NCBI GenBank assembly: GCA_019244185.1
Contig: JAFATB010000012.1
Coordinates: forward strand, 32,001 to 96,000
Length of the DNA stretch: 64,000 nucleotides
Reading direction: 5' to 3'
From: Acidobacteriota bacterium
GTDB taxonomy: Bacteria; Acidobacteriota; Thermoanaerobaculia; Gp7-AA8
Of the stretch, positions 12,004-27,099 are shown piece by piece. How positions within the stretch are numbered: the stretch's first letter is position 1; every line of letters starts with the position of its first letter. The notes beneath the pieces are model-generated. The model did not search any database, had not been told where the DNA came from, and worked only from the letters and a program-made list of their open reading frames with translations. The position numbers and the translations under genes were made by a program.

Positions 12004-15000
12004 CTAGAACGCGTAGCCGAGGCTGATGAAGTACGTGAACGCGCGCTCGTGCTCGCGGCGCTGCAGGGGCCAGCCGAGGTCGAAGCGCAGCGGGCCGACC
12101 GGCGAGAGGTAGCGCACGCCGAAGCCGAGGCCGTAGCGCAGCATGTCGAAGCGGATCGTGTCGTCCTTGTAGACGTTACCCGCGTCGGCGAAGAGCGCCC
12201 CGCCGAGACTGGAGACGATCGGGAAGCGGTACTCCGCGTTGAAGAGCAGCAGGCCGCTGCCGCCGAGCGGCAGCACCGGCCCGACTTCCTCGTGCGTCTC
12301 GGGATCGATGCGGCGGAAGAGCGTCGGCTGGCAGATGCCGCTCTTGTCGAAGTCGCGCGGATCGGTGCACAGCGTGCCGAGGAGGTCGGTCATGAAGCCG
12401 CGGTGCGTGGTCTCGCCGCCGGCGGTGAAGCGCTCGGACAGCGGCACGTCGTCGTGCGTGGTGATGCCGTGCGGCTGAATGAGGCCGAGGCGGCCGGAGA
12501 GCGCGAGCACGGTGCGCGTGGAGAGCGGCAGGTAGTACGCGCCCTGCGCGAATTCCTTCGTGAAGTTCGCGTCGGCGGCGAAGAGCGGGAACGCGTACTC
12601 GATCGACGCGCTGGTGAAGAAGCCGCGGTGCGGATCGATGATGTCGTCGCGCGTGTCCCAGAAGAACGTCGGCGTGAGGCTGGAGATGGCGATGTTGAGC
12701 AGCGAGCGGTCGATGCCTTCGACGGGATCGCCGCTGTTGATCGCGTCGCAGACGTCGCCTTCGCGGCAGTCGGAGATCTTGTACTCGTAGCGCACCGACC
12801 AGCGCGTGCGCGTCAGCGCGACTTTCGTGATCTCGATCGACGTACCGCGCTGGAGGATGCGCGTGCCGGGACGCGTGGCGTCGTCGGTCTGGAAGACCTG
12901 CAGTTGCAGCGGCACGTTCCAGCGGCTGATGAACGGCTCGCGGTACGTGATGAACGCTTCCTGTTCTTTCTGCTGGCCGCGGCTGAGGACCGTCTCGATG
13001 CCGAGGTAGCGGCCGGTGCCGAAGAGGTTGCGGTGCGCGGCCGCGAGCGCGACGCGCGGCTCGATCTGCACGCCGTCGCCGACCGTGCCGCGTTGCGCGC
13101 GCAGTCCGACCGAACCGGTCAGCGTGAGGTTGCGTCCTTCCTCCACCTGCAGCACGACGTTGCGATCGCCGACGGTCGTGCCGGCCTGCTCGGGTTGCAC
13201 CTCGACGCGGTTGAAGATACCGAGCGCGTAGAGATTGCGCTGCGCCGCGAGAAGCGCGGTGTAGCTGAACGGCTGGCCCGCGTGGATGTCGGCCGTGCGC
13301 AGCACGACGTCGCGGTCGGTGTACGTGTTGCCGCGCACGGTGACGTCGCCGATGTCCACGTGCGGCCCTTCCGTCACGACATACGTCAGCACCGCCTGCG
13401 TTTTGTCGGTGCTGAGCTCCACCCGTGGGGCAACCTGTACTTCCGTATGGCCGGCGTCGGCGTAGTACGTCTGCAGCGCGACGACGTCGTTGTGCTCGAG
13501 CTGCGGATTGAGCGGATCGCCCGCCTTGAGCACCGGCTTCGGCGCGTTGCCATGTTCTTTCGGATCGATGCCTTCGGTCGTGACGGTGGTGAGGATCGTC
13601 TGCGGACCTTCGGTGATCGGGAAGTCGACGGTCATCGTTCCCGCCGCCTCATTCGGCGTGACCGCCGGCTCCCCGACGGTCGCCTCGGAGAATCCATTGA
13701 GGCGGTAGTACGACTCGAGGGAATCGCGGTCGCCGCTCAGCTGCTCGCGCGTGACGCCGGTGGGGCGGCGGAAGATCGTGGCGACGAGGCGCTTGATGCC
13801 GCCGCTCGGCGACGTGGCCACGAGCTTCTGCAGCGCCTTGTCGGTGACTCTCGCATTGCCGCTGAACGTGACGCCGGCGAGGCGCAGCTTCGGCCCCGGG
13901 CTGACGTTGAACGTCGTCGTCCAGACGTTGCCGGAGAGCGCGCTCTCCGTGTCGACGGCGGCGAGGTAGTAGCCGCGCTCCTGCAGGCCGCGCGTGATGT
14001 CGTCGGCGGCCTTGTCGACCGCGTCCTCGCTGTACTCCTGGTTGCGCGCGAACGGCAGCCACTTGCGGACCATGCTGCGCGGCACGCCTTTGACCGCGAC
14101 CTGCACGGTCGGGCCGACGGTGACGCGGTAGCGCAGCGCGACGGTGTGCGTGGCGGCGTCGTAGGTGTCGCTCACGTACGTGACGTCGGCGCGACGGTAG
14201 CCGCGGCGCAGGAGGAAGTTCTTCATGCGCTCGGCGTCGAAGCGCGCGTCCTGCCGCTCGAACGTTTTTCCGGGACGGCGCTTCATCCGCCCGATCAATT
14301 GCGCGGTGGTGAACGGCGCCGTGTTGCCTTCGATGGTGACGTTGCCGACCTTCGCCAGTGGCCCGGGCGTCACCTCCAGCGTGACGTCGGCGATGTTGCG
14401 CGCGCGGTCGAAGGTCGTCGACGGATCGACGATCGCCTCGAGGTAGCCGTAGCGATGCAGCATGTCCTCGACGGCGAGCGCGCTGTCGTTGACGTCGTCG
14501 AGCGAGAGCACCTCGCCCGGCCGCACCGTGAGCTCGCGCTCGGCGCGCGCGCGGTCGTTGTGTCCGACGCCGCTGATGGTGATGTTGTTCACGCGGTAGT
14601 GAAGGAAGAGCGAGAACGTGAGCACGACGCCGGCGGGATCATTCGCCGCGTCGACGCGGATGTCGCGGAAGTTGCCGGTGCCGAAGAGGTTCTTGATCGA
14701 CGACTGCAGCTCGCGCATGGTGACCGGCTGTCCCGGCTTGAGCGTGACTTCCTGCGCGACCGTAGCGGTGTCGAAGCGCGCGTCGGCGCGGAGGTCGATG
14801 CGCGCGATGGTCTTGCCGTTCGCCGCGCGCGCGTTGACGGCGGTCACCGGCAATGGCGGCGGCGCGGCGACCGGCGCGGTGCTCGTCGCAGTTGCAGCGT
14901 TCGCGACATTCGCCGGCGTCGTCGTGGTCTGTCCCGGCGTGCCGCTGCTGCTGATCGTCGCGGCGGTGGCGTAGTCGTCTTCCTTCGCGTCGCGGAAGCT

Positions 15001-18000
15001 CCAGCGCGCGTCGTAGCGGCGGCGGAAGCGCGCGTCGATGCGGTACTCGTCGGTCTGGTCGCGCGTGAGCTGCAGCGAGTAGTCGCGGCTCACCGTCCAC
15101 TCGAGCACCTGGCGGCTCTGCTGGTTGTCGAGCCAGTAGACGAGGAGGAACCGGATCTTCGGCGAGAGGCGCTTCTCGAACGTGACCTTCGGCCCCGAGC
15201 CGGTGCCGGTTTCGAGCGTGCCGGGGTCGTACGCGAACGAGTCGACGAACGGAAAGACGCGCGCGCCGACGAGATTGACGAGGCTCTGGTAGAGCAGCGA
15301 CTGTCCGACCGCGCCGACCGGCTGCTGCGTGCCGTTGGTCGGTCCCATTCCCAGTCCGCCGAAGCCGAGAATCGAGAAGAGCGTGATGTCGCTCGCGGGA
15401 GGATCGCTGGTGATCGTCGGCGTGATGCGGTCGAGCGTGCCGGTGATGTTCACCGTGACGTCGTACGGTCCCGACTCCGCCTCGGTGCCGAAGCCGTTGA
15501 CCGTGCCTTCGATCGTGACGTCGAAGTAGGGATCGATGCGGAACGGATTCTGGAACGCGACCGTGCCGCGCGAAACGCGGTAGTCGACGTTCTGGATGCG
15601 CACGGTGCCGCCTTCGTCGAGCGTGACTTCGCCGAGGATGACCGGGTTCGCGACGGTGCCGGTCACGTCGAGCGTCGCGCTGCCGGTGACGTCGGCGATG
15701 TTGTTGCGCACGGCGAGCGTGCCGGGCGCGTTGAGGTGCAGGCGCAGGCCGATGCGGTCCTGCCACGTCGCGGCGCTGACGGGCGTCACGCGGTTGCGCG
15801 CGAGGATCACGTTGAGCAGCGTCTGCTGGATGTCGAAGTCGCGGAAGTAGAGCGCGCGCGTGACGTCGACGTCGCCGGTGAGCACGGCCTTGTCGAGATC
15901 GCCAGACAGGAGCAGCGTGAAGTTGCCCTGCACGGTGACGCCCTCGTAGTAGCGCACCGCGACGTCGGTGCCTTGCAGCGTGATGCGCGCCGACTGCGGC
16001 TTGATGCCGTCGAGCAGGATCGCACCGCCCATCACGATCGTGCCGCCGCCGACGGTCGCGCGCAGCTGCTCGATCTCGATGCGGTCGCCGCGGAAGTTGA
16101 GCCGGCCGTTGATCTGGTCGATGAGCTGCGGGAAGCCGGCGAACTTCACCTGCGCGTTTTCGAGCGTCGCGGTGCCGGTGATCTGCGGCGAGGTGAGCGT
16201 GCCGTCGACGCTCATGGCGACGTCCATGTGGCCGTCGGCGCGCAAGCCCGTCGCGAAGAGTTGCAGCAGCGCCGCTTCGACGCGGCCGCGCACGTCGACG
16301 TCGAGCCGCTTCGCACCGATCAGCTCCGCGAAGCCGTTCGCGGTGAACATCGACGTGCCGCTCTGCAACGCGAACGTGTCGAGCTCGACGCGCCCGTTGC
16401 GCAGCGCGATGTGCAGCGGCTGCTGCGTGGAGAACGTCTCGTCGGCGATCTGGAGGTTGAACACCGGAGCCGTTGCGTCGATCGTCAGCGCCTCGATCGG
16501 CGTGAGATGTCCGCCGAGCTTCAGATCGACGACGATGTTGCCCGACGCCGGCAGCGACGCCGTCGCGGGCGAGACGGCGAGCGCGCGCGCGATGTCGGTG
16601 ATCGTCACGCGCACGTTGCCGTCGACCGCGAGATTCGGTCCGACCGCGCCTTCGCCTTCGATCGTGACGATGTCGGCGATGTTGCCGCGCACGACGAGCC
16701 GTCCGTTGCGAATGGCGATGTAGAGCGACGGCGGCGCCGCGCCTGCCGGCAGCGAGAGTCCGCGCAGCGTGGCGTCGTTGAGCGTCGCCTCGACCACGAG
16801 CTCCGGCTGCGCGAACGTGCCCGCGCCGGTCGACTTCAGCACGACGTTGCCGCCGAGGAGATCCTTCAGACTCTCGAGGACCTTCAGCTTCGAGAGGTTG
16901 ATGCTGCTCGAGGTGATGTTGTAGCTGAAGTTCTGGTTGTTGAGATCGACCTCGCCTTCGCCGCGGATCTCGCCGGCCGGCGATTGCACGAGCACGTTCG
17001 TCAGGCGCGCGCGTCCCTGCGTGAACGTGATGTCGGCGCTGGCGAGGTTCACCGGCTCGCCGTAGACGACGCCGTTCTTCACGGCAACCGTGCCGCTGCC
17101 TTCGAGCTGCTGCTTCGTGCCCGACAGCCGCAGCTTGCCGGTGAGATCGCCGCTCACGGGGAACGTGCCGAGGTCGAGGAAGGCGATGATGTCGCCGACC
17201 GGGAAGTTCGTCGCGGCGATGTCGAGGTCGAACGCGACGTTGCCTTTGCCCGGCAGCCAGTGCAGCGTGCCGTTCAGCGCGAGACTCGCATTCGCGCGGC
17301 GCACGTTCACGTTGACGAACGTCGCGCGTCCATCGTCGGGCGTGCCGGCGACGATGAGCCGTCCCGTCGCCAGCCCGTCGCCGATCTTGAGATCGAGTCC
17401 GACGGCGTCGATGGCGCGCTGCGCGGGATAGGCATTCGCGTCGACGGCGATGTCGAAGCGCGGCTTGCCGTTCTCCGGAAACGCGACGGTGCCGCTGAGC
17501 GCGAGCCGCCCCTGCCCGTTCACGAACGACGCGCGCTCGAACGTGAGCGTGCTCGCGTTGCCGTCGTAGCGCAGGTCGATGTCGGAGTCGCCGAGGAGCA
17601 CATTGTTGTACTGCGTCGCGCTGCTGACGATGTGCGCGGCGACCTGCGGCTTGTCGATCGGCCCGCTCACCGTGCCGGTGATCGTCCCGCCGCCGCCGAG
17701 GCCGAGGAGCGTGTAGTCCTTCTTGCCCGCGCTGTGCGCGAAGTTGTAGCCGAGGCGGTCGAGCTCGGAGAAGTCGGCGCTGCGGATCGTGGTCTGGAAG
17801 TTCGTGACGATCTTCTCGATGGCCAGCGTGCCGGTGAGGCTGACGTGCGAGTGATCGGTGTCGAGCTCCGCGCGGCGGAACGTGACCACGCCGTTGTCGA
17901 GCGCGAAGTCGGTGCTGCCGGCGATGCCGATCGGATAGCGCGCGTTCGAGAACGCGACGGCGTCCTTGGACAGCTTCGCGGTGCCTTCGCCCGCGCCTTC

Positions 18001-19284
18001 GAGCACCTTGTCCTTGTTCCAGTGATACGAGAGCTGTCCGGTCGCGGCGGCGCGGATGCCGGTGTTCTCCACCGTCCAGTCGTTGAAGAGCTGTTCGAGC
18101 GCGATTCCGTAGTAACGCAGGTCGACCTGCATCGGATACGGCTCGGCGTATTGCGCGAGCGTGTAGTGAGCGCCGATGGTGCCGCCGCCGTAACCGGCTT
18201 TCGTCACGTCGATGGTTAGGTGGTCGCCGCGCACGTCGAGCGTGCCCTTCGCGTTCGCGAGCGTGTACGCGTCCGCGGTGAGCTTCGGCGTCGTCCAGCC
18301 GCCCTGCAGCGTGAACTCACCCTGCTTGCCGCTGAGACGCCCGTCGAGTGCGAGCGTGCCCGCGAGCACTTTCTCGACGCGGAAGATCTCGCGCACGCGT
18401 TCGAGCGCGATCTGCGAGGTGACGCGCAGGTCGTACACGCCGTCCGCGAGCGGCGCGACGTTGCCGGAGAGAAACGCCTCGATGCCGCGGCCCTTGAGCG
18501 CGACCGAGCGCAGCGCGAGCTTGTTCGGCGTGAAGCGGAAGCCGCCGTGCAGATCGAGATCGAACGGCTCGTAGTCCTGCAGCCGCACGCGCACGAGCGG
18601 GCTGCTCAAAATCCCCTCGTACAGATCCTCGGCACGCGAGATCGTGATCTGCGAGTCGAGCTTCGTGGAGATGGCCGTGATGTCATGCTTGCGGTCGAGG
18701 AAATCGAACGCGCCGTTCGTCACGTACATCTTGCCGATGTCGAGATGCACGATCTCCGTGCGCGACTTCGGGCCGCTCGTCCAGTGCGGGAAGTTGTGCA
18801 CGAGCGGCGAGCCGTTCGGGAAGACTTCGAACCAGAGATGCGGATCGCGCACGTCGACGCGGTCGACTTTGATCGCGCGTCCCCAGAACGACTCGACGCC
18901 GCCGGTGATCTCGATCTGCCGCGCGGTCGCAAAGTACGGCGCCTTGCCGCCCGGCGCGTTGGCGATGCGGAGGTCGTTGAGGATCACGCGCTGCGGCCGC
19001 GTGCGCACGATCGTGACGCTGCCGATCGTGACCTTGCGGCCGAGGTGCGTCTCGAGGGTCTTCTCGATGCGCAGCTTCACGAGGCCGGCGAAGCTCGACG
19101 TACCGAGGTACCACCAGCCGCCGCCGACGAGCACGATGAGCAGAACCGCCGCGACGCCGAAGACCCAGATCAGCGCCTTGAGACACCCCCACATCGGACC
19201 GCGGCGCTGGCGTTCGCGCGCGGAGCGATGGCGCTTCTCCCGCGAGGGAGGCAGCAATGGATCTGCCGGGTCGTTGATGCTCAT
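12004..19284 (-). CDS. TamB/AsmA-like plus POTRA/Omp85 (BamA/TamA) fusion protein, 2426 aa
   Basis: N-terminal TM, beta-rich AsmA-like repeats, DUF490-like region, T/A/P linker, POTRA repeats, barrel motifs ERFTAGGETTHRGF, SPVGPLRFDLG, terminal YFISLGYAF. Confidence 0.9.
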   Translation of the reverse strand: MSINDPADPLLPPSREKRHRSARERQRRGPMWGCLKALIWVFGVAAVLLIVLVGGGWWYLGTSSFAGLVKLRIEKTLETHLGRKVTIGSVTIVRTRPQRVILNDLRIANAPGGKAPYFATARQIEITGGVESFWGRAIKVDRVDVRDPHLWFEVFPNGSPLVHNFPHWTSGPKSRTEIVHLDIGKMYVTNGAFDFLDRKHDITAISTKLDSQITISRAEDLYEGILSSPLVRVRLQDYEPFDLDLHGGFRFTPNKLALRSVALKGRGIEAFLSGNVAPLADGVYDLRVTSQIALERVREIFRVEKVLAGTLALDGRLSGKQGEFTLQGGWTTPKLTADAYTLANAKGTLDVRGDHLTIDVTKAGYGGGTIGAHYTLAQYAEPYPMQVDLRYYGIALEQLFNDWTVENTGIRAAATGQLSYHWNKDKVLEGAGEGTAKLSKDAVAFSNARYPIGIAGSTDFALDNGVVTFRRAELDTDHSHVSLTGTLAIEKIVTNFQTTIRSADFSELDRLGYNFAHSAGKKDYTLLGLGGGGTITGTVSGPIDKPQVAAHIVSSATQYNNVLLGDSDIDLRYDGNASTLTFERASFVNGQGRLALSGTVAFPENGKPRFDIAVDANAYPAQRAIDAVGLDLKIGDGLATGRLIVAGTPDDGRATFVNVNVRRANASLALNGTLHWLPGKGNVAFDLDIAATNFPVGDIIAFLDLGTFPVSGDLTGKLRLSGTKQQLEGSGTVAVKNGVVYGEPVNLASADITFTQGRARLTNVLVQSPAGEIRGEGEVDLNNQNFSYNITSSSINLSKLKVLESLKDLLGGNVVLKSTGAGTFAQPELVVEATLNDATLRGLSLPAGAAPPSLYIAIRNGRLVVRGNIADIVTIEGEGAVGPNLAVDGNVRVTITDIARALAVSPATASLPASGNIVVDLKLGGHLTPIEALTIDATAPVFNLQIADETFSTQQPLHIALRNGRVELDTFALQSGTSMFTANGFAELIGAKRLDVDVRGRVEAALLQLFATGLRADGHMDVAMSVDGTLTSPQITGTATLENAQVKFAGFPQLIDQINGRLNFRGDRIEIEQLRATVGGGTIVMGGAILLDGIKPQSARITLQGTDVAVRYYEGVTVQGNFTLLLSGDLDKAVLTGDVDVTRALYFRDFDIQQTLLNVILARNRVTPVSAATWQDRIGLRLHLNAPGTLAVRNNIADVTGSATLDVTGTVANPVILGEVTLDEGGTVRIQNVDYRVSRGTVAFQNPFRIDPYFDVTIEGTVNGFGTEAESGPYDVTVNITGTLDRITPTITSDPPASDITLFSILGFGGLGMGPTNGTQQPVGAVGQSLLYQSLVNLVGARVFPFVDSFAYDPGTLETGTGSGPKVTFEKRLSPKIRFLLVYWLDNQQSRQVLEWTVSRDYSLQLTRDQTDEYRIDARFRRRYDARWSFRDAKEDDYATAATISSSGTPGQTTTTPANVANAATATSTAPVAAPPPLPVTAVNARAANGKTIARIDLRADARFDTATVAQEVTLKPGQPVTMRELQSSIKNLFGTGNFRDIRVDAANDPAGVVLTFSLFLHYRVNNITISGVGHNDRARAERELTVRPGEVLSLDDVNDSALAVEDMLHRYGYLEAIVDPSTTFDRARNIADVTLEVTPGPLAKVGNVTIEGNTAPFTTAQLIGRMKRRPGKTFERQDARFDAERMKNFLLRRGYRRADVTYVSDTYDAATHTVALRYRVTVGPTVQVAVKGVPRSMVRKWLPFARNQEYSEDAVDKAADDITRGLQERGYYLAAVDTESALSGNVWTTTFNVSPGPKLRLAGVTFSGNARVTDKALQKLVATSPSGGIKRLVATIFRRPTGVTREQLSGDRDSLESYYRLNGFSEATVGEPAVTPNEAAGTMTVDFPITEGPQTILTTVTTEGIDPKEHGNAPKPVLKAGDPLNPQLEHNDVVALQTYYADAGHTEVQVAPRVELSTDKTQAVLTYVVTEGPHVDIGDVTVRGNTYTDRDVVLRTADIHAGQPFSYTALLAAQRNLYALGIFNRVEVQPEQAGTTVGDRNVVLQVEEGRNLTLTGSVGLRAQRGTVGDGVQIEPRVALAAAHRNLFGTGRYLGIETVLSRGQQKEQEAFITYREPFISRWNVPLQLQVFQTDDATRPGTRILQRGTSIEITKVALTRTRWSVRYEYKISDCREGDVCDAINSGDPVEGIDRSLLNIAISSLTPTFFWDTRDDIIDPHRGFFTSASIEYAFPLFAADANFTKEFAQGAYYLPLSTRTVLALSGRLGLIQPHGITTHDDVPLSERFTAGGETTHRGFMTDLLGTLCTDPRDFDKSGICQPTLFRRIDPETHEEVGPVLPLGGSGLLLFNAEYRFPIVSSLGGALFADAGNVYKDDTIRFDMLRYGLGFGVRYLSPVGPLRFDLGWPLQRREHERAFTYFISLGYAF

Positions 19285-22344: not shown

Positions 22345-22963
22345 CAAAGCCCTCCGAGTTCCTCGTCAAACGCCCTTCGTGCCGGTGGTGCTTCTAATCC
22401 GATCTTTCTCGCAGTCTCTAGAATGCGGCGCGCGCGTTTCTCGGCTGCCAATTCCAGGAGATCATGCATCTGCTCCGCAGACCGCACCTCTGTTGTGCGA
22501 GCCATACCGGCAGGACGAACGTAAACTGCTCCCTGCCTGATTTGAGAGTTTGGCGGTCATCGCGTCGACACACAATCGGCGTGGCGCCGAACTCAGATAC
22601 GCTTACGCACAGGAACCGGCGCGCATTCCATGGTACGACGACGAGTATCACGTCGACAGAGGGTGAGGCGAACTTGTGGATCGCATCGATCACGTCATCG
22701 ACCTGATACGTCGCTAAGTGTTCGTTGCTGATGCCAGGAAGCTCCCATTGGTCCCCACGTTCACTAACGCCAATGACGATCACGCCGCCATCCCGCAGAT
22801 TGGCCATGGCGAGTGTCGTTCGAATGATCTTATGCTGAAGCTCTTCCCAGGGCGCCGACTCCTTGAAGTCGATCGATTGCACTTCCACGCAGCTTTCGAG
22901 TGCGGCTACGGCGCGTTGGTGAAGTGCGCGATGACCGGGCAGGTCCGAAATTGGAATCGGCAT
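22344..22963 (-). pseudogene. AlbA_2/Schlafen-domain gene with one frameshift near 22557 (real or sequencing error)
   Basis: EVQSIDFKE, AMANLRDGGVIVIGVSE; continues in another frame as IRQGAVYVRPAGMARTTEVRSAEQMHDLLELA...EELGGL stop. Confidence 0.78.
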
Positions 22964-23009
22964 CGATGTCCATCGTACCTCGGGCTCTTGCCCGACGACG
23001 TCGGGCCGG

Positions 23010-23438
23010 CTATGCGGACAGCGCGTCGATCAGCCGCGCCACGACCCGCGTGAGCGATTGCAGGTCGCGCTCGGAGATGTGCTCGGCGCCGATGGAACGG
23101 ACCCATTCGTCATACGCGGGGCGCACCTTGTCGACGACGCCGCGGCCGCGGCGCGTGAGCGCGACGCCGGACGAGCGCAGATCGTTCGGATCGTCGTGTC
23201 GCTCGGCGAGGCCGAGCTGTTCGAGGCGGGCGATCATGCCGGTCATGTTCTGTTTCGTGACCATGAGGCGCCGCGCGAGGGCGACCAGCGTCTGCGGCAC
23301 GTCCTCGTCCGAGATGGCCGCGAGCACGGCCCACTGTTGCGGGGTGATCTTCGACTTCTCGAAGATCGGCGCGAGCCGCCGGTTGAGAAGGTTCGCGAGC
23401 TGCATGATGCCACCGACGAGATCGCGTTCGGCCGCCAT
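23010..23438 (-). CDS. MarR-family regulator
   Basis: ITPQQWAVL, LARRLMVTKQNMTGMIARLE, DPNDLRS, LTRRG. Confidence 0.92.
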   Translation of the reverse strand: MAAERDLVGGIMQLANLLNRRLAPIFEKSKITPQQWAVLAAISDEDVPQTLVALARRLMVTKQNMTGMIARLEQLGLAERHDDPNDLRSSGVALTRRGRGVVDKVRPAYDEWVRSIGAEHISERDLQSLTRVVARLIDALSA

Positions 23439-23441
23439 CCG

Positions 23442-23473
23442 GTCAATCTATTGACTAAGCGGCCCGGAGTCAA
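23442..23473 (-). promoter_or_regulatory. marR promoter with palindromic operator
   Basis: Minus TTGACT-N17-TAGATT, 6 nt before the ATG; palindrome GTCAAT-N2-ATTGAC at 23442-23455. Confidence 0.75.
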
Positions 23474-23482
23474 ATCGGCGCG

Positions 23483-25276
23483 TCAGCGGAGCACGGCCGC
23501 GACCTTCGTCTCCACCGCGGCGTGCAGCGTCGGCGGCGCGCCGTAGAACACGCCCGCGGTCTTCCCCGTTTTGTCGAAGAGGAAGAGCGTCGGCACGGCG
23601 CTGATGTCGCCGAACGAGCGCGCGAGCTCCGGCGTCGCGAGGCCCCAGCGCACCGGCAGCGCGAGCTCGCGCGTCAGCTTGCGCACGTCGGCTTCGGGCG
23701 ATTCGACGGCGAGGCCGACGACGGCGACGCGGTCGCCATATCGCTTCTTCAACGTCCCGAGCCACTCCAGCGTTCCGCGGCACGGCGGACACCACGTCGC
23801 CCAGAACTCGACGATCACGGCGCGGCCGGCGAGTTGCGCGCGCGTCAGCGGCTTGCCGTCGAGGTCCGTGATGCTGAGCTGCGGCAGCGCCGCGATCTCG
23901 TTCGACGTCGCGCTCGCGGCGCGCGCCCGTGCGTCGTCGGTCTTGCCGGCCAGCACGAGCTGCAACATGCGCGTGAGATCGGAGCGGAAGCGCTCGTGGC
24001 TCGCCGCGCTGCGCAGCGGCGCGTAGCGTCCGGAGTTGCCTTCGCCTTTGCCGAAGAAGCCGAAATCGTTCGGCGTCGCCACGAGGATGTCGTCGACGAA
24101 GATCGCGGGATAGCGCTTCACGCCGAAGCGTTGCGCGAGCTTCGACTGCCCGTAGTTCTCGACGACGAACCGCACGCTTCCGTTGAACTGTTGCACCACG
24201 CTCTGAGCCAGCAGACCTGCCGGATCGGAGAGGTTTCACGTGTATGGCCAGCGAATGAGCGTGACCGTCGCGCGCGGCGCGGGCAACGCTTTCACCGGCG
24301 GCGCGGGTCCGATCGCGGCGAAGTAGCGCGGCAGCGATGCGGACGCGATGGCCGACGCGACCGCGCCGCCGTCCGCGCGTGCGAGATCCGCCTGCGCGCT
24401 TTCGACGAACATCCGCGCGATGCTGTGATCGACGTTCGGCGCGGCGGCGATGCGCGCGGACGTCTCGCGCAGACGCTGCTCGATCTCCGCCCGCGCGAGC
24501 GGTGTCGTCGCGCGGATCTGCGCCGTGCGCCGCACGGCTTCGAGATAGCGCACGAGCGCGCCGCGGCGCAGTCCCGCGGCATCGAGCTCGCGCGCTTCCT
24601 TCAAGAGCGAGCTCGCGTTGATGAAGTCCGAGTGGCGATCGATGGACGCGGGCGGACGATACGCGGCGAGCAGCTCCCGTTCGAGCGCGTCGAGCTCCGG
24701 CGCGATCGAGCGGAACGCCGGCGCGCGCTTCGCTTCCGGCTGCGACGCGCGGCGCGCGAAGGCGAGGAAGTCGCGCTGCGCCACGGCCTGCCCGAGGTAG
24801 AAGTAACCGGCGAAGGGGCTCGTGTTCTGCGCGTAGATCAGGCTCGCGCCATACAACTCGTGCACCTGCGGGATCGCGGTCTCGAGGAGGCCGCGCACGG
24901 CGGCGGGCTGCACGTCGTCGAGTTTCGGCGCGGGCGCGTTCTGCAGTTGCGGGCCGAGGCGCTTCCATTCGGCTTCGAGCCCGTCGAGATTCTGCATCGC
25001 CGTCGCCGGTTGTTTTGCGACATACGCGGCGGCACCGAGGTTCGGCCATGCGCTGGCGAGCTGCTGCAGCGCGTAGAGCCGGCGTCCGTCGCGCAGCGCG
25101 TCGGAGGCGCGGTCGAGCGCCGGCTGCGCGCCGCCTTTCACCTCGTCCCACGCGCCGCCTTTCGACTGCGCGAGCACCGACGACCAGCGCGCGACTTCCT
25201 GCGCGACCGGATCGGCGGCATTCGTCGCGGCGAGCAACGCCATCGCGGCCGCGGCGACGAACGAACGTGCGTGCAT
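23483..25276 (-). CDS. Probable selenoprotein, 597 aa: signal peptide, helical domain, Trx-like domain (UxxS), TlpA-like domain (WCPPC)
   Basis: ORFs 24236-25276 and 23483-24199 are in frame, separated only by TGA at 24238-24236; SECIS-like hairpin follows. Confidence 0.85.
24201..24235 (-). promoter_or_regulatory. Bacterial SECIS element
   Basis: After UGA: AACCUCUCCGAU-CCGGCAGGUCUGCUGG-CUCAGAG; GCAGGUCUGC core starts 15 nt after the UGA. Confidence 0.82.
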
Positions 25277-25327
25277 GTCAGCGGTATAGCACCGCCCGCC
25301 TGCGCGCTCGTTGAACGAACGGCAAAC

Positions 25328-27099
<1,772 letters not shown>

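Follow-up and report, generated by a model that had tools for sequence, protein, structure and literature searches.

Two neighbouring genes of an Acidobacteriota genome probably encode one three-domain redox selenoprotein

One reading frame across an internal UGA

We analysed a stretch of 64,000 nucleotides (nt) from an Acidobacteriota bacterium (GenBank assembly GCA_019244185.1, contig JAFATB010000012.1, positions 32,001 to 96,000), referred to here as the window. In the list of open reading frames (ORFs), two neighbouring genes appear on its minus strand: 25276..24236, encoding 346 amino acids (aa) and ending in ...TLIRWPYT, and 24199..23483, encoding 238 aa from a GTG start. A preliminary description of this DNA had taken the two for parts of a single frame. 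Reading 25276..23483 of the minus strand straight through, we found two in-frame TGA codons only, codon 347 and the terminal stop, and no other stop, which bears out the single frame. We concluded that the two neighbouring "genes" are very probably one gene for a 597-residue redox selenoprotein, predicted to be exported, with selenocysteine (Sec) at the internal UGA. The gene is laid out as follows.

23486..25276, minus strand: complete coding sequence of 597 residues with Sec at residue 347 (single-frame reading)
23483..23485, minus strand: terminal stop TGA
24236..24238, minus strand: UGA codon 347, read as selenocysteine (conserved column)

The column of the internal UGA was compared across homologues from several collections, which overlap. 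In a set of 41 related genomes, 13 matches cover the column, and each has a single TGA and the same motif, at 36–56% protein identity. The Sec domain was found in 23 of the 401 genomes of an even phylum sample, with one TGA in 23/23. The species-representative genomes yielded 166 relatives and TGA at 81/81 motif sites in the 80 loci kept. The JGI metagenome contigs, scanned with Cys-type proteins as seeds, yielded 538 relatives and TGA at 79/79 motif sites in the 80 loci kept, two of which (L223 and L224) lie outside the motif pattern. When identical 390-nt stretches were dropped, 185 distinct homologous stretches were left; every one of them has the TGA (185/185), and the motif RWP[YF]T-U-xxSDP is invariant. 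No TAA, TAG, Trp or frame offset was seen at the Sec column in the homologues examined. One genome, G030, contributes one row to alignments A1–A3 and one count to each of the 41-genome and 401-genome sets, while G002 and G024 (41-genome set) and G087 and G185 (selA tally) enter tallies only; no conclusion rests on any of these genomes. As 44 of 114 family genes also terminate with TGA, this codon is not generally reassigned. Two loci stand apart from the usual pattern: L070 (G069:C8:45138-45473) is a Sec-domain match with one TGA outside the motif pattern, possibly a divergent motif, and the Thermoanaerobaculia contig JBKKAU010000575.1 (L109) has two motif copies, each with a TGA and a GGUC hairpin, which may be tandem paralogues.

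Cysteine takes the place of Sec in eight database proteins (P0002, P0003, P0018, P0031, P0032, P0035, P0043 and P0053). One of them, P0032, is a full-length Cys form of 599 aa from an Armatimonadota metagenome-assembled genome (MAG), which NCBI names "TlpA family protein disulfide reductase". Twelve proteins were inspected: six carry Cys, a 117-aa fragment has Arg, one is divergent and lacks Cys, three are garbled by frameshifts, and one begins past the Sec column. Whether homologues keep TGA or have Cys was a check proposed in the preliminary description; both states occur, the former in all distinct stretches and the latter in the eight proteins.

The same description had proposed a search for the Sec machinery, and all of it is present in the genome (26 contigs, 98.9% complete). 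We found selA (479.5 bits), selB (378.1 bits, matched over the full model length), selD (371.8 bits) and tRNA-Sec (71.1 bits), each above its curated cut-off; ARAGORN also reports a tRNA-SeC with the anticodon TCA. In the phylum sample, selA occurs in 23/23 carriers of the family, compared with 301/401 genomes overall. Because related genomes are not independent, we used this co-occurrence as supporting evidence only.

The split seen in the window was foreseen in the preliminary description, and it recurs in the databases. The protein database holds the 346-aa N-terminal piece of the window gene as an entry of its own (P0007), and gene callers split the family as well, so that 9 of the 10 best representative matches begin at residue 1–3, directly past the UGA. 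TGG or TGC in sequencing reads, named beforehand as evidence against recoding, did not turn up: the TGA site is covered by contigs of four sequencing runs with 0 differences, and no other letter is seen there. Contigs of three metagenome runs, which may represent the source sample, cover the whole gene without differences, and a 244-nt contig from the fourth run spans the UGA, likewise without differences.

The hairpin downstream of the UGA

The TGA (24238..24236) is followed by the 15 nt AACCTCTCCGATCCG and then by GCAGGTCTGC. The segment CCGGCA/GGUC/UGCUGG folds with two further pairs beneath it, and the 28-nt minimal hairpin has a folding energy of −10.1 kcal/mol. Its parts are listed here.

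24205..24226, minus strand: selenocysteine insertion sequence (SECIS) hairpin, GA.CCGGCA-GGUC-UGCUGG.UC (fold, pair counts, synonymous sites and covariation)
24223..24218 paired with 24213..24208, minus strand: SECIS upper stem
24217..24214, minus strand: SECIS loop

A passage in section 5 of a May 2026 review (PMC13188914) gives the model for bacterial SECIS (bSECIS) elements as a loop of 3–9 nt, an upper stem of 4–16 bp, a G within the first two loop positions, a base pair flanking the loop G[G/U], a distance of 16–37 nt from UGA to loop, and a minimum free energy of ≤ −7.5 kcal/mol. The window hairpin falls within the model as given there, with a GGUC loop, a 6-bp stem, a spacing of 18 nt and −10.1 kcal/mol. 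The 10-mer core occurs 14 times in its own genome, against ~23 occurrences expected by composition, and the combination of TGA, 15 nt and core occurs once, at this site. In this lone sequence the hairpin thus stands above chance only weakly, and the comparative evidence settles the case.

We compared the element with two formate dehydrogenase genes. In fdhF of Escherichia coli K-12 MG1655, the TGA is followed by the 15 nt CACGGCCCATCGGTT and then by GCAGGTCTGC; the core and offset given in the preliminary description were confirmed on this sequence. Both elements lie inside the coding sequence, directly downstream of the UGA, and share the 15-nt spacing, the identical 10-nt core GCAGGUCUGC and a GGUC loop at an equal distance. 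They differ in the stem below the core, where the window gene has six uninterrupted base pairs, one of them G:U or A:U, whereas the 5′ arm of the E. coli fold has a single bulged base. About 60% of the family relatives also carry AGUU in place of the GGUC loop of E. coli. The gene for the formate dehydrogenase alpha subunit of the same genome (fdhA; G000:C4:575618-578527, L050) contains one TGA and the hairpin GGUGCCC-GGUCU-GGGCACC, in which GGU is the 7th codon past the UGA, as in the window gene. The SECIS-like hairpin first noticed in the window therefore folds, agrees with the published bacterial constraints, and has the loop and offset of its own fdhA. The selD gene of this genome (G000:C6:611614-612546, L008) also has one in-frame TGA, and encodes a Sec-type selenophosphate synthetase; the RNA past that UGA has no obvious resemblance to the GGUC hairpin.

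Constraint at the RNA level was measured by codon and pair statistics on 33 aligned sequences. Synonymous entropy is zero at the hairpin codons +6 (GCA, 33/33), +7 (AGT, 24/24 among Ser) and +9 (CTG, 33/33), and Pro +5 is encoded by CCG or CCA only. Synonymous sites of other invariant residues in the same domain vary freely, at 1.1–1.9 bits. Four stem pairs are invariant, pair 24–35 is either G:U (25 sequences) or A:U (8), and the outermost pair is lost in 8/33. The bases flanking the loop GU are paired in every sequence (A:U in 24, G:C in 8, G:U in 1); among the 185 distinct stretches the corresponding counts are 113, 69 and 1. At this flank, G to A replaces Gly by Ser while C to U leaves Leu unaltered, and the two changes always occur together. 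A FastTree phylogeny of 114 sequences, computed with these codons masked, implies at least 13 changes of state at the flank, a rough figure from a quick and unrooted tree. Conservation of the hairpin in homologues, another check proposed at the outset, is therefore borne out by the invariant stem pairs and the always-paired flanks. The frozen synonymous sites and covarying loop flanks support the hairpin as a constrained RNA element. The additional lower CUCU/AGAG pairing suggested in the preliminary description stood in part: pair 16–43 is kept in 32/33 sequences, and pairs 15–44 and 17–42 fell short, in 16/33 and 23/33, respectively. The conserved element is the 6-bp upper stem with its loop, and the lower stem is weakly supported.

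The analysis shows computationally that the UGA is recoded and that a SECIS, the Sec machinery and Sec/Cys pairs exist, and it also covers the fold and architecture described below. Recoding by the standard bacterial SelB/SECIS route is well supported. By this route, SelB carrying Sec-tRNA(Sec) would bind the hairpin that begins 12 nt past the UGA, with its GU-containing apical loop 18 nt past it, and selenocysteine would be placed at codon 347 in place of termination.

Domains, variants and distribution of the family

The full-length protein was aligned with 12 Sec-type and 2 Cys-type relatives, and a whole-protein AlphaFold2 (AF2) model was built from a 15-row alignment. The model has a mean predicted local distance difference test (pLDDT) score of 86.7 and a predicted template modelling (pTM) score of 0.75. 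The domains are arranged as follows.

25214..25276, minus strand: predicted signal peptide MHARSFVAAAAMALLAATNA, followed by AD, residues 1 to ~21 (read from sequence)
24302..25213, minus strand: all-helical domain, about residues 22–325 (AF2 model)
23924..24280, minus strand: Sec-containing thioredoxin-fold domain, residues 333–451 (domain model and fold searches)
23486..23905, minus strand: TlpA/ResA/DsbE-like thioredoxin domain, residues 458–597 (Pfam and fold searches)
23780..23794, minus strand: WCPPC motif

This is the architecture that the preliminary description had outlined, with the signal peptide judged by eye. The AF2 model begins with a low-confidence N-terminal helix, corresponding to the signal sequence, and the N-termini of the relatives are basic and then hydrophobic, often closing with a lipobox Cys; these features suggest that the protein is exported. 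Helices continue to residue 321 at high pLDDT, and the helical domain has nearly invariant residues including R128, S145, Y148, Y160, K226 and E227. No Pfam or NCBIfam (release 20) model matches residues 1–452. Searches with the whole model matched almost only the C-terminal domain (~455–597), with a few alignments starting at 385–446, and are therefore silent on the helical domain.

Conservation within the protein is highest in the Sec domain, whose motif is T..RWPYT-U-NLSDPA.LL and whose cis-Pro loop reads RYPAIFVD. In the whole-protein model this domain comprises a strand (336–342), the low-confidence Sec loop (346–349), a helix (352–364), a strand (368–374), a short helix (379–383), two strands (391–394 and 397–400) and a last helix (424–442). 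Folded alone from 61 rows, the domain reached pLDDT 91.6 and pTM 0.87 with the topology b-a-b-a-b-b-a. The best VIA-align match is the designed thioredoxin 7q3j (Z 10.2, root-mean-square deviation (rmsd) 2.0, 83 residues aligned), natural thioredoxins reach Z 8–9, and nearly all of the 50 matches listed, from Z 10.2 to 6.9, have a thioredoxin fold. All Foldseek matches are thioredoxins, PDI domains or glutaredoxins, though weak ones, the best at E 5.6e-3 over ~70 columns. These models support a thioredoxin fold with Sec at the N-terminus of helix 1, at the place of the first Cys, and a YP cis-Pro loop before strand 3. The domain was not placed in the thioredoxin or glutaredoxin sequence families by Pfam, NCBIfam or the PDB profile search. 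As predicted, strand 1 precedes the UGA while helix 1, the YP loop and the remainder follow it, so that the fold would be complete only when the UGA is read; the preliminary description had proposed just such a straddling fold. The motif is of the UxxS type (U-x-x-S-D-P) with an invariant Ser and no CxxC dithiol, and in the alignment no conserved Cys or His is found near Sec besides the CPPC of the other domain.

The C-terminal domain is clearly of the TlpA/ResA/DsbE type, with WCPPC. Pfam matched Redoxin (5.5e-12) and AhpC-TSA (1.4e-10), Foldseek matched 3or5 (3.4e-7), and VIA-align gave Z 19.8 to 3gl3 (rmsd 1.9, 138 residues aligned), Z 18.1 to ResA (2f9s) and Z 16.8 to CcmG (1kng). Its NCBIfam scores are below the cut-offs: 56.1 bits against 170 for ResA, 49.4 against 230 for TlpA and 24.8 against 123 for DsbE.

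The architectures at 114 family sites, 108 of which have CPPC, are as follows.

104/114 sites: long N-terminal part and CxxC domain
6/114 sites: short N-terminus (signal only) and CxxC domain
3/114 sites: intermediate architecture, two of them cut by a contig end
1/114 sites: no CxxC domain (L032)

L031 (G007:C4) has the helical domain in an ORF of its own, upstream of a Sec-Trx-TlpA protein that starts with a signal peptide, while L032 (G011:C41) consists of the helical and Sec domains. Stand-alone Cys-type domains with a signal peptide also exist (P0031 and P0035). The constant unit of the family is the Sec domain. In one Cys-type protein, P0053 (438 aa), the domain stands behind what appears by eye to be the N-terminus of an extracytoplasmic function (ECF) sigma factor and a hydrophobic segment.

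According to record titles, most relatives belong to Acidobacteriota (Thermoanaerobaculia, Vicinamibacteria and Holophagales), and a few come from MAGs labelled Eisenbacteria, Planctomycetota, delta proteobacteria, Kofleriaceae or Acidimicrobiia. The family stands out by being abundant, by using Sec almost exclusively and by combining three domains with predicted export. Public records truncate the gene at the UGA into a hypothetical protein and a generic "TlpA family" reductase, and one profile on the RWP[YF]T-U-xxSDP domain would mend hundreds of records. Because the gene shares an identical SECIS core with fdhF of E. coli, heterologous expression in that host may work unengineered, which would make a cheap test.

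Proposed function, rival explanations and known relatives

TlpA-type domains in other bacteria are kept reduced from the cytoplasm by transporters of the DsbD/CcdA type. We tentatively propose a reductase or peroxidase relay from the Sec domain to the CPPC domain, a reading of the domain arrangement to which we give somewhat less than even weight. In the cell envelope, the selenolate would attack an oxidised substrate, which may be a disulfide, a sulfenic acid or a peroxide, and the product would be a selenenylsulfide or a selenenic acid. As the Sec domain lacks a second Cys, the adjacent CPPC dithiol would be the thiol that resolves this intermediate, and a membrane electron transporter of the DsbD/CcdA type would in turn re-reduce the CPPC. 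Export, chemistry, relay and substrate are all inferred here. The protein would then be an envelope selenoprotein in which a single-selenol thioredoxin fold is fused to its probable reductant, and a compact system for asking why Sec beats Cys outside the cytoplasm. If true, the family would provide a selenium-based redox relay outside the cytoplasm, which may be one reason why these soil bacteria retain the Sec machinery.

One rival to the single recoded gene is that the window holds two separate genes, a 346-residue helical protein with a true UGA stop and a TlpA-like protein starting from the GTG at 24199. Gene callers read it so, as the 346-aa entry P0007 and the nine of ten best representative matches that start just past the UGA testify, and L031 does encode the helical domain in an ORF of its own, upstream. 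However, even the short protein of L031 starts ahead of the UGA, has a separate signal peptide, and reads through; conservation across the whole protein peaks in a block that spans the UGA, as would strand 1 and the rest of the modelled thioredoxin fold; the Cys forms are continuous; and synonymous sites in the codons that follow the UGA are frozen, in a pattern that matches base pairing. We consider two separate genes extremely improbable. One in-frame stop in a 26-contig draft genome would usually point to a pseudogene or to a sequencing or assembly error, but the TGA stands at the same column in 185/185 distinct stretches and the contigs of four runs, three of which may represent the source sample, show no other letter there. 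The probability of this explanation is close to nil, and we regard it as effectively refuted. Stop-codon read-through stimulated by a downstream structure occurs in bacteria. The UGA might accordingly be decoded as Trp, Cys or Arg by hairpin-stimulated near-cognate read-through, without selenocysteine, and the Arg found at this column in one database fragment would fit such decoding. This we judge very improbable, given that loop, offset and core of the hairpin agree with SelB-type SECIS elements, those of E. coli fdhF and of the genome's own fdhA, that selA is present in all 23 carriers of the phylum sample, and that the natural substitute is Cys, the usual partner of Sec, where a thioredoxin fold has its catalytic residue.

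A genuine selenoprotein might also have another job, such as the binding or transfer of a metal or metalloid (Cu, Hg, As or Se), or the work of a substrate-specific disulfide isomerase or trap. Single-nucleophile CxxS proteins of the thioredoxin fold often hold mixed disulfides, and the UxxS domain may act likewise. TlpA-type proteins service copper-centre assembly, with 4txo and 4txv among the Foldseek matches, and several catalogued selenoproteins handle metals (PMC13188914, Table 1). On the other hand, leaving aside the CPPC of the other domain, Sec has no conserved Cys or His in its vicinity, and no metal-transport gene is a conserved neighbour over 81 loci. We hold such roles to be unlikely, while giving them some weight.

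Several observations weigh against the exported redox selenoprotein with its relay, and are gathered here. The hairpin is of ordinary stability compared with shuffles of this 67% G+C DNA (z −0.22 and z −0.76), and because these scores fail to separate it from the shuffles, the folding energy was not used as an argument. No Rfam family matched at E ≤ 10 within 23000..26000 apart from a chance miRNA row, in a scan for which the bacterial SECIS types that Rfam models were left unchecked. The lower stem is poorly conserved, and two metagenome stretches (among L156–L235) have the variant loop CCAGCC-GGGA-UGCUGG, with the TGA and the stem kept. One 117-aa database fragment has Arg at the Sec column, and the Cys-seeded scan of the JGI metagenome contigs, which was aimed at Cys-form DNA, returned TGA at all of its 79 motif sites. 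For the Sec domain, Foldseek gave no match at E ≤ 0.001, and the PDB sequence-profile search reached E 0.12 at best, short of significance. Neither partner domain is obligatory, since the TlpA domain is absent from one relative and the helical domain from six. With regard to the relay and function, no neighbour is conserved over 81 loci, the best being a MacB/FtsX permease at 12/81.

The protein was also compared with known systems. It resembles TlpA, ResA and CcmG (DsbE) in the fold of its C-terminal domain, the WCxxC motif and the Pfam Redoxin and AhpC-TSA matches, and differs from them in NCBIfam scores far below the cut-offs of the TlpA and ResA models (49–56 bits against 170–230) and in the fusion of this domain to two more, one of which bears Sec. 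With the catalogued thioredoxin-fold selenoproteins (Trx, Grx, thiol:disulfide interchange protein, UGC-containing TlpA family, Redoxin family and Prx-like UxxS) it shares Sec at a catalytic position, Cys homologues and a SECIS directly downstream. In those proteins, Sec replaces a Cys of CxxC within a recognisable Pfam or NCBIfam domain, whereas here the TlpA domain keeps its CPPC and Sec lies in a separate domain without a Pfam or NCBIfam match. In envelope methionine-sulfoxide reductase (Msr) fusions of the Neisseria PilB type, a catalytic redox domain is joined to a TlpA-like recycling domain. The window protein likewise has a redox domain fused to a TlpA-like domain that would recycle it extracytoplasmically, but it has no Msr domain and its Sec lies in a thioredoxin fold, so the analogy is one of mechanism only.

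Table 1 of the May 2026 review lists 119 prokaryotic selenoprotein families, with UxxS entries for rhodanese, ArsC and Prx-like cd02970 (PMC13188914). None of the 119 shares the motif or architecture, and the Pfam and NCBIfam identifiers listed there miss the Sec domain; families given under cd or PTHR identifiers only were compared by description, not by scan. In a full-text literature search, WPYTU, WPYTC and YTUxxS were absent and two other motif strings gave unrelated words only, and a search combining selenoprotein, Acidobacteri-, novel selenoprotein and thioredoxin gave nothing relevant. Passage searches of the BSepDB paper (PMC13326102) and of a 2022 review (PMC9312934) returned no passage with Acidobacteria or TlpA. 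The family is thus missing from the catalogues searched, and may be listed in supplements, BSepDB or RefSeq, which were outside the search. It is best regarded as a new family inside a well-known class, in which new thioredoxin-fold selenoprotein families of bacteria turn up regularly. It would be an abundant addition to the selenoproteome of Acidobacteriota, a phylum unmentioned in the passages that term searches of selenoprotein papers returned. We are evenly divided on the broader proposition, namely an uncatalogued and almost obligately Sec family, widespread in soil Acidobacteriota and scattered elsewhere, that combines a new helical domain with a new UxxS subtype of the thioredoxin fold recycled in cis by a TlpA-type dithiol.

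In the window, the selenoprotein gene has an enolase gene upstream and, directly downstream on the same strand, a gene for a MarR-family regulator. The downstream ORFs are 23010..23438 and 22418..22963 (minus strand), the MarR regulator being followed by a 181-aa Schlafen AlbA_2 ORF. Clustering of the neighbours at 81 loci showed that the MarR gene is not conserved at the other loci; the second commonest neighbour, after the permease, is a protein of the metallo-beta-lactamase fold (10/81). Elsewhere in the window, a very long frame on the minus strand (12004..19284) stays open for 2426 aa and is matched by an antisense frame of the same length; at the G+C content of this DNA, one of the two may be a shadow ORF.

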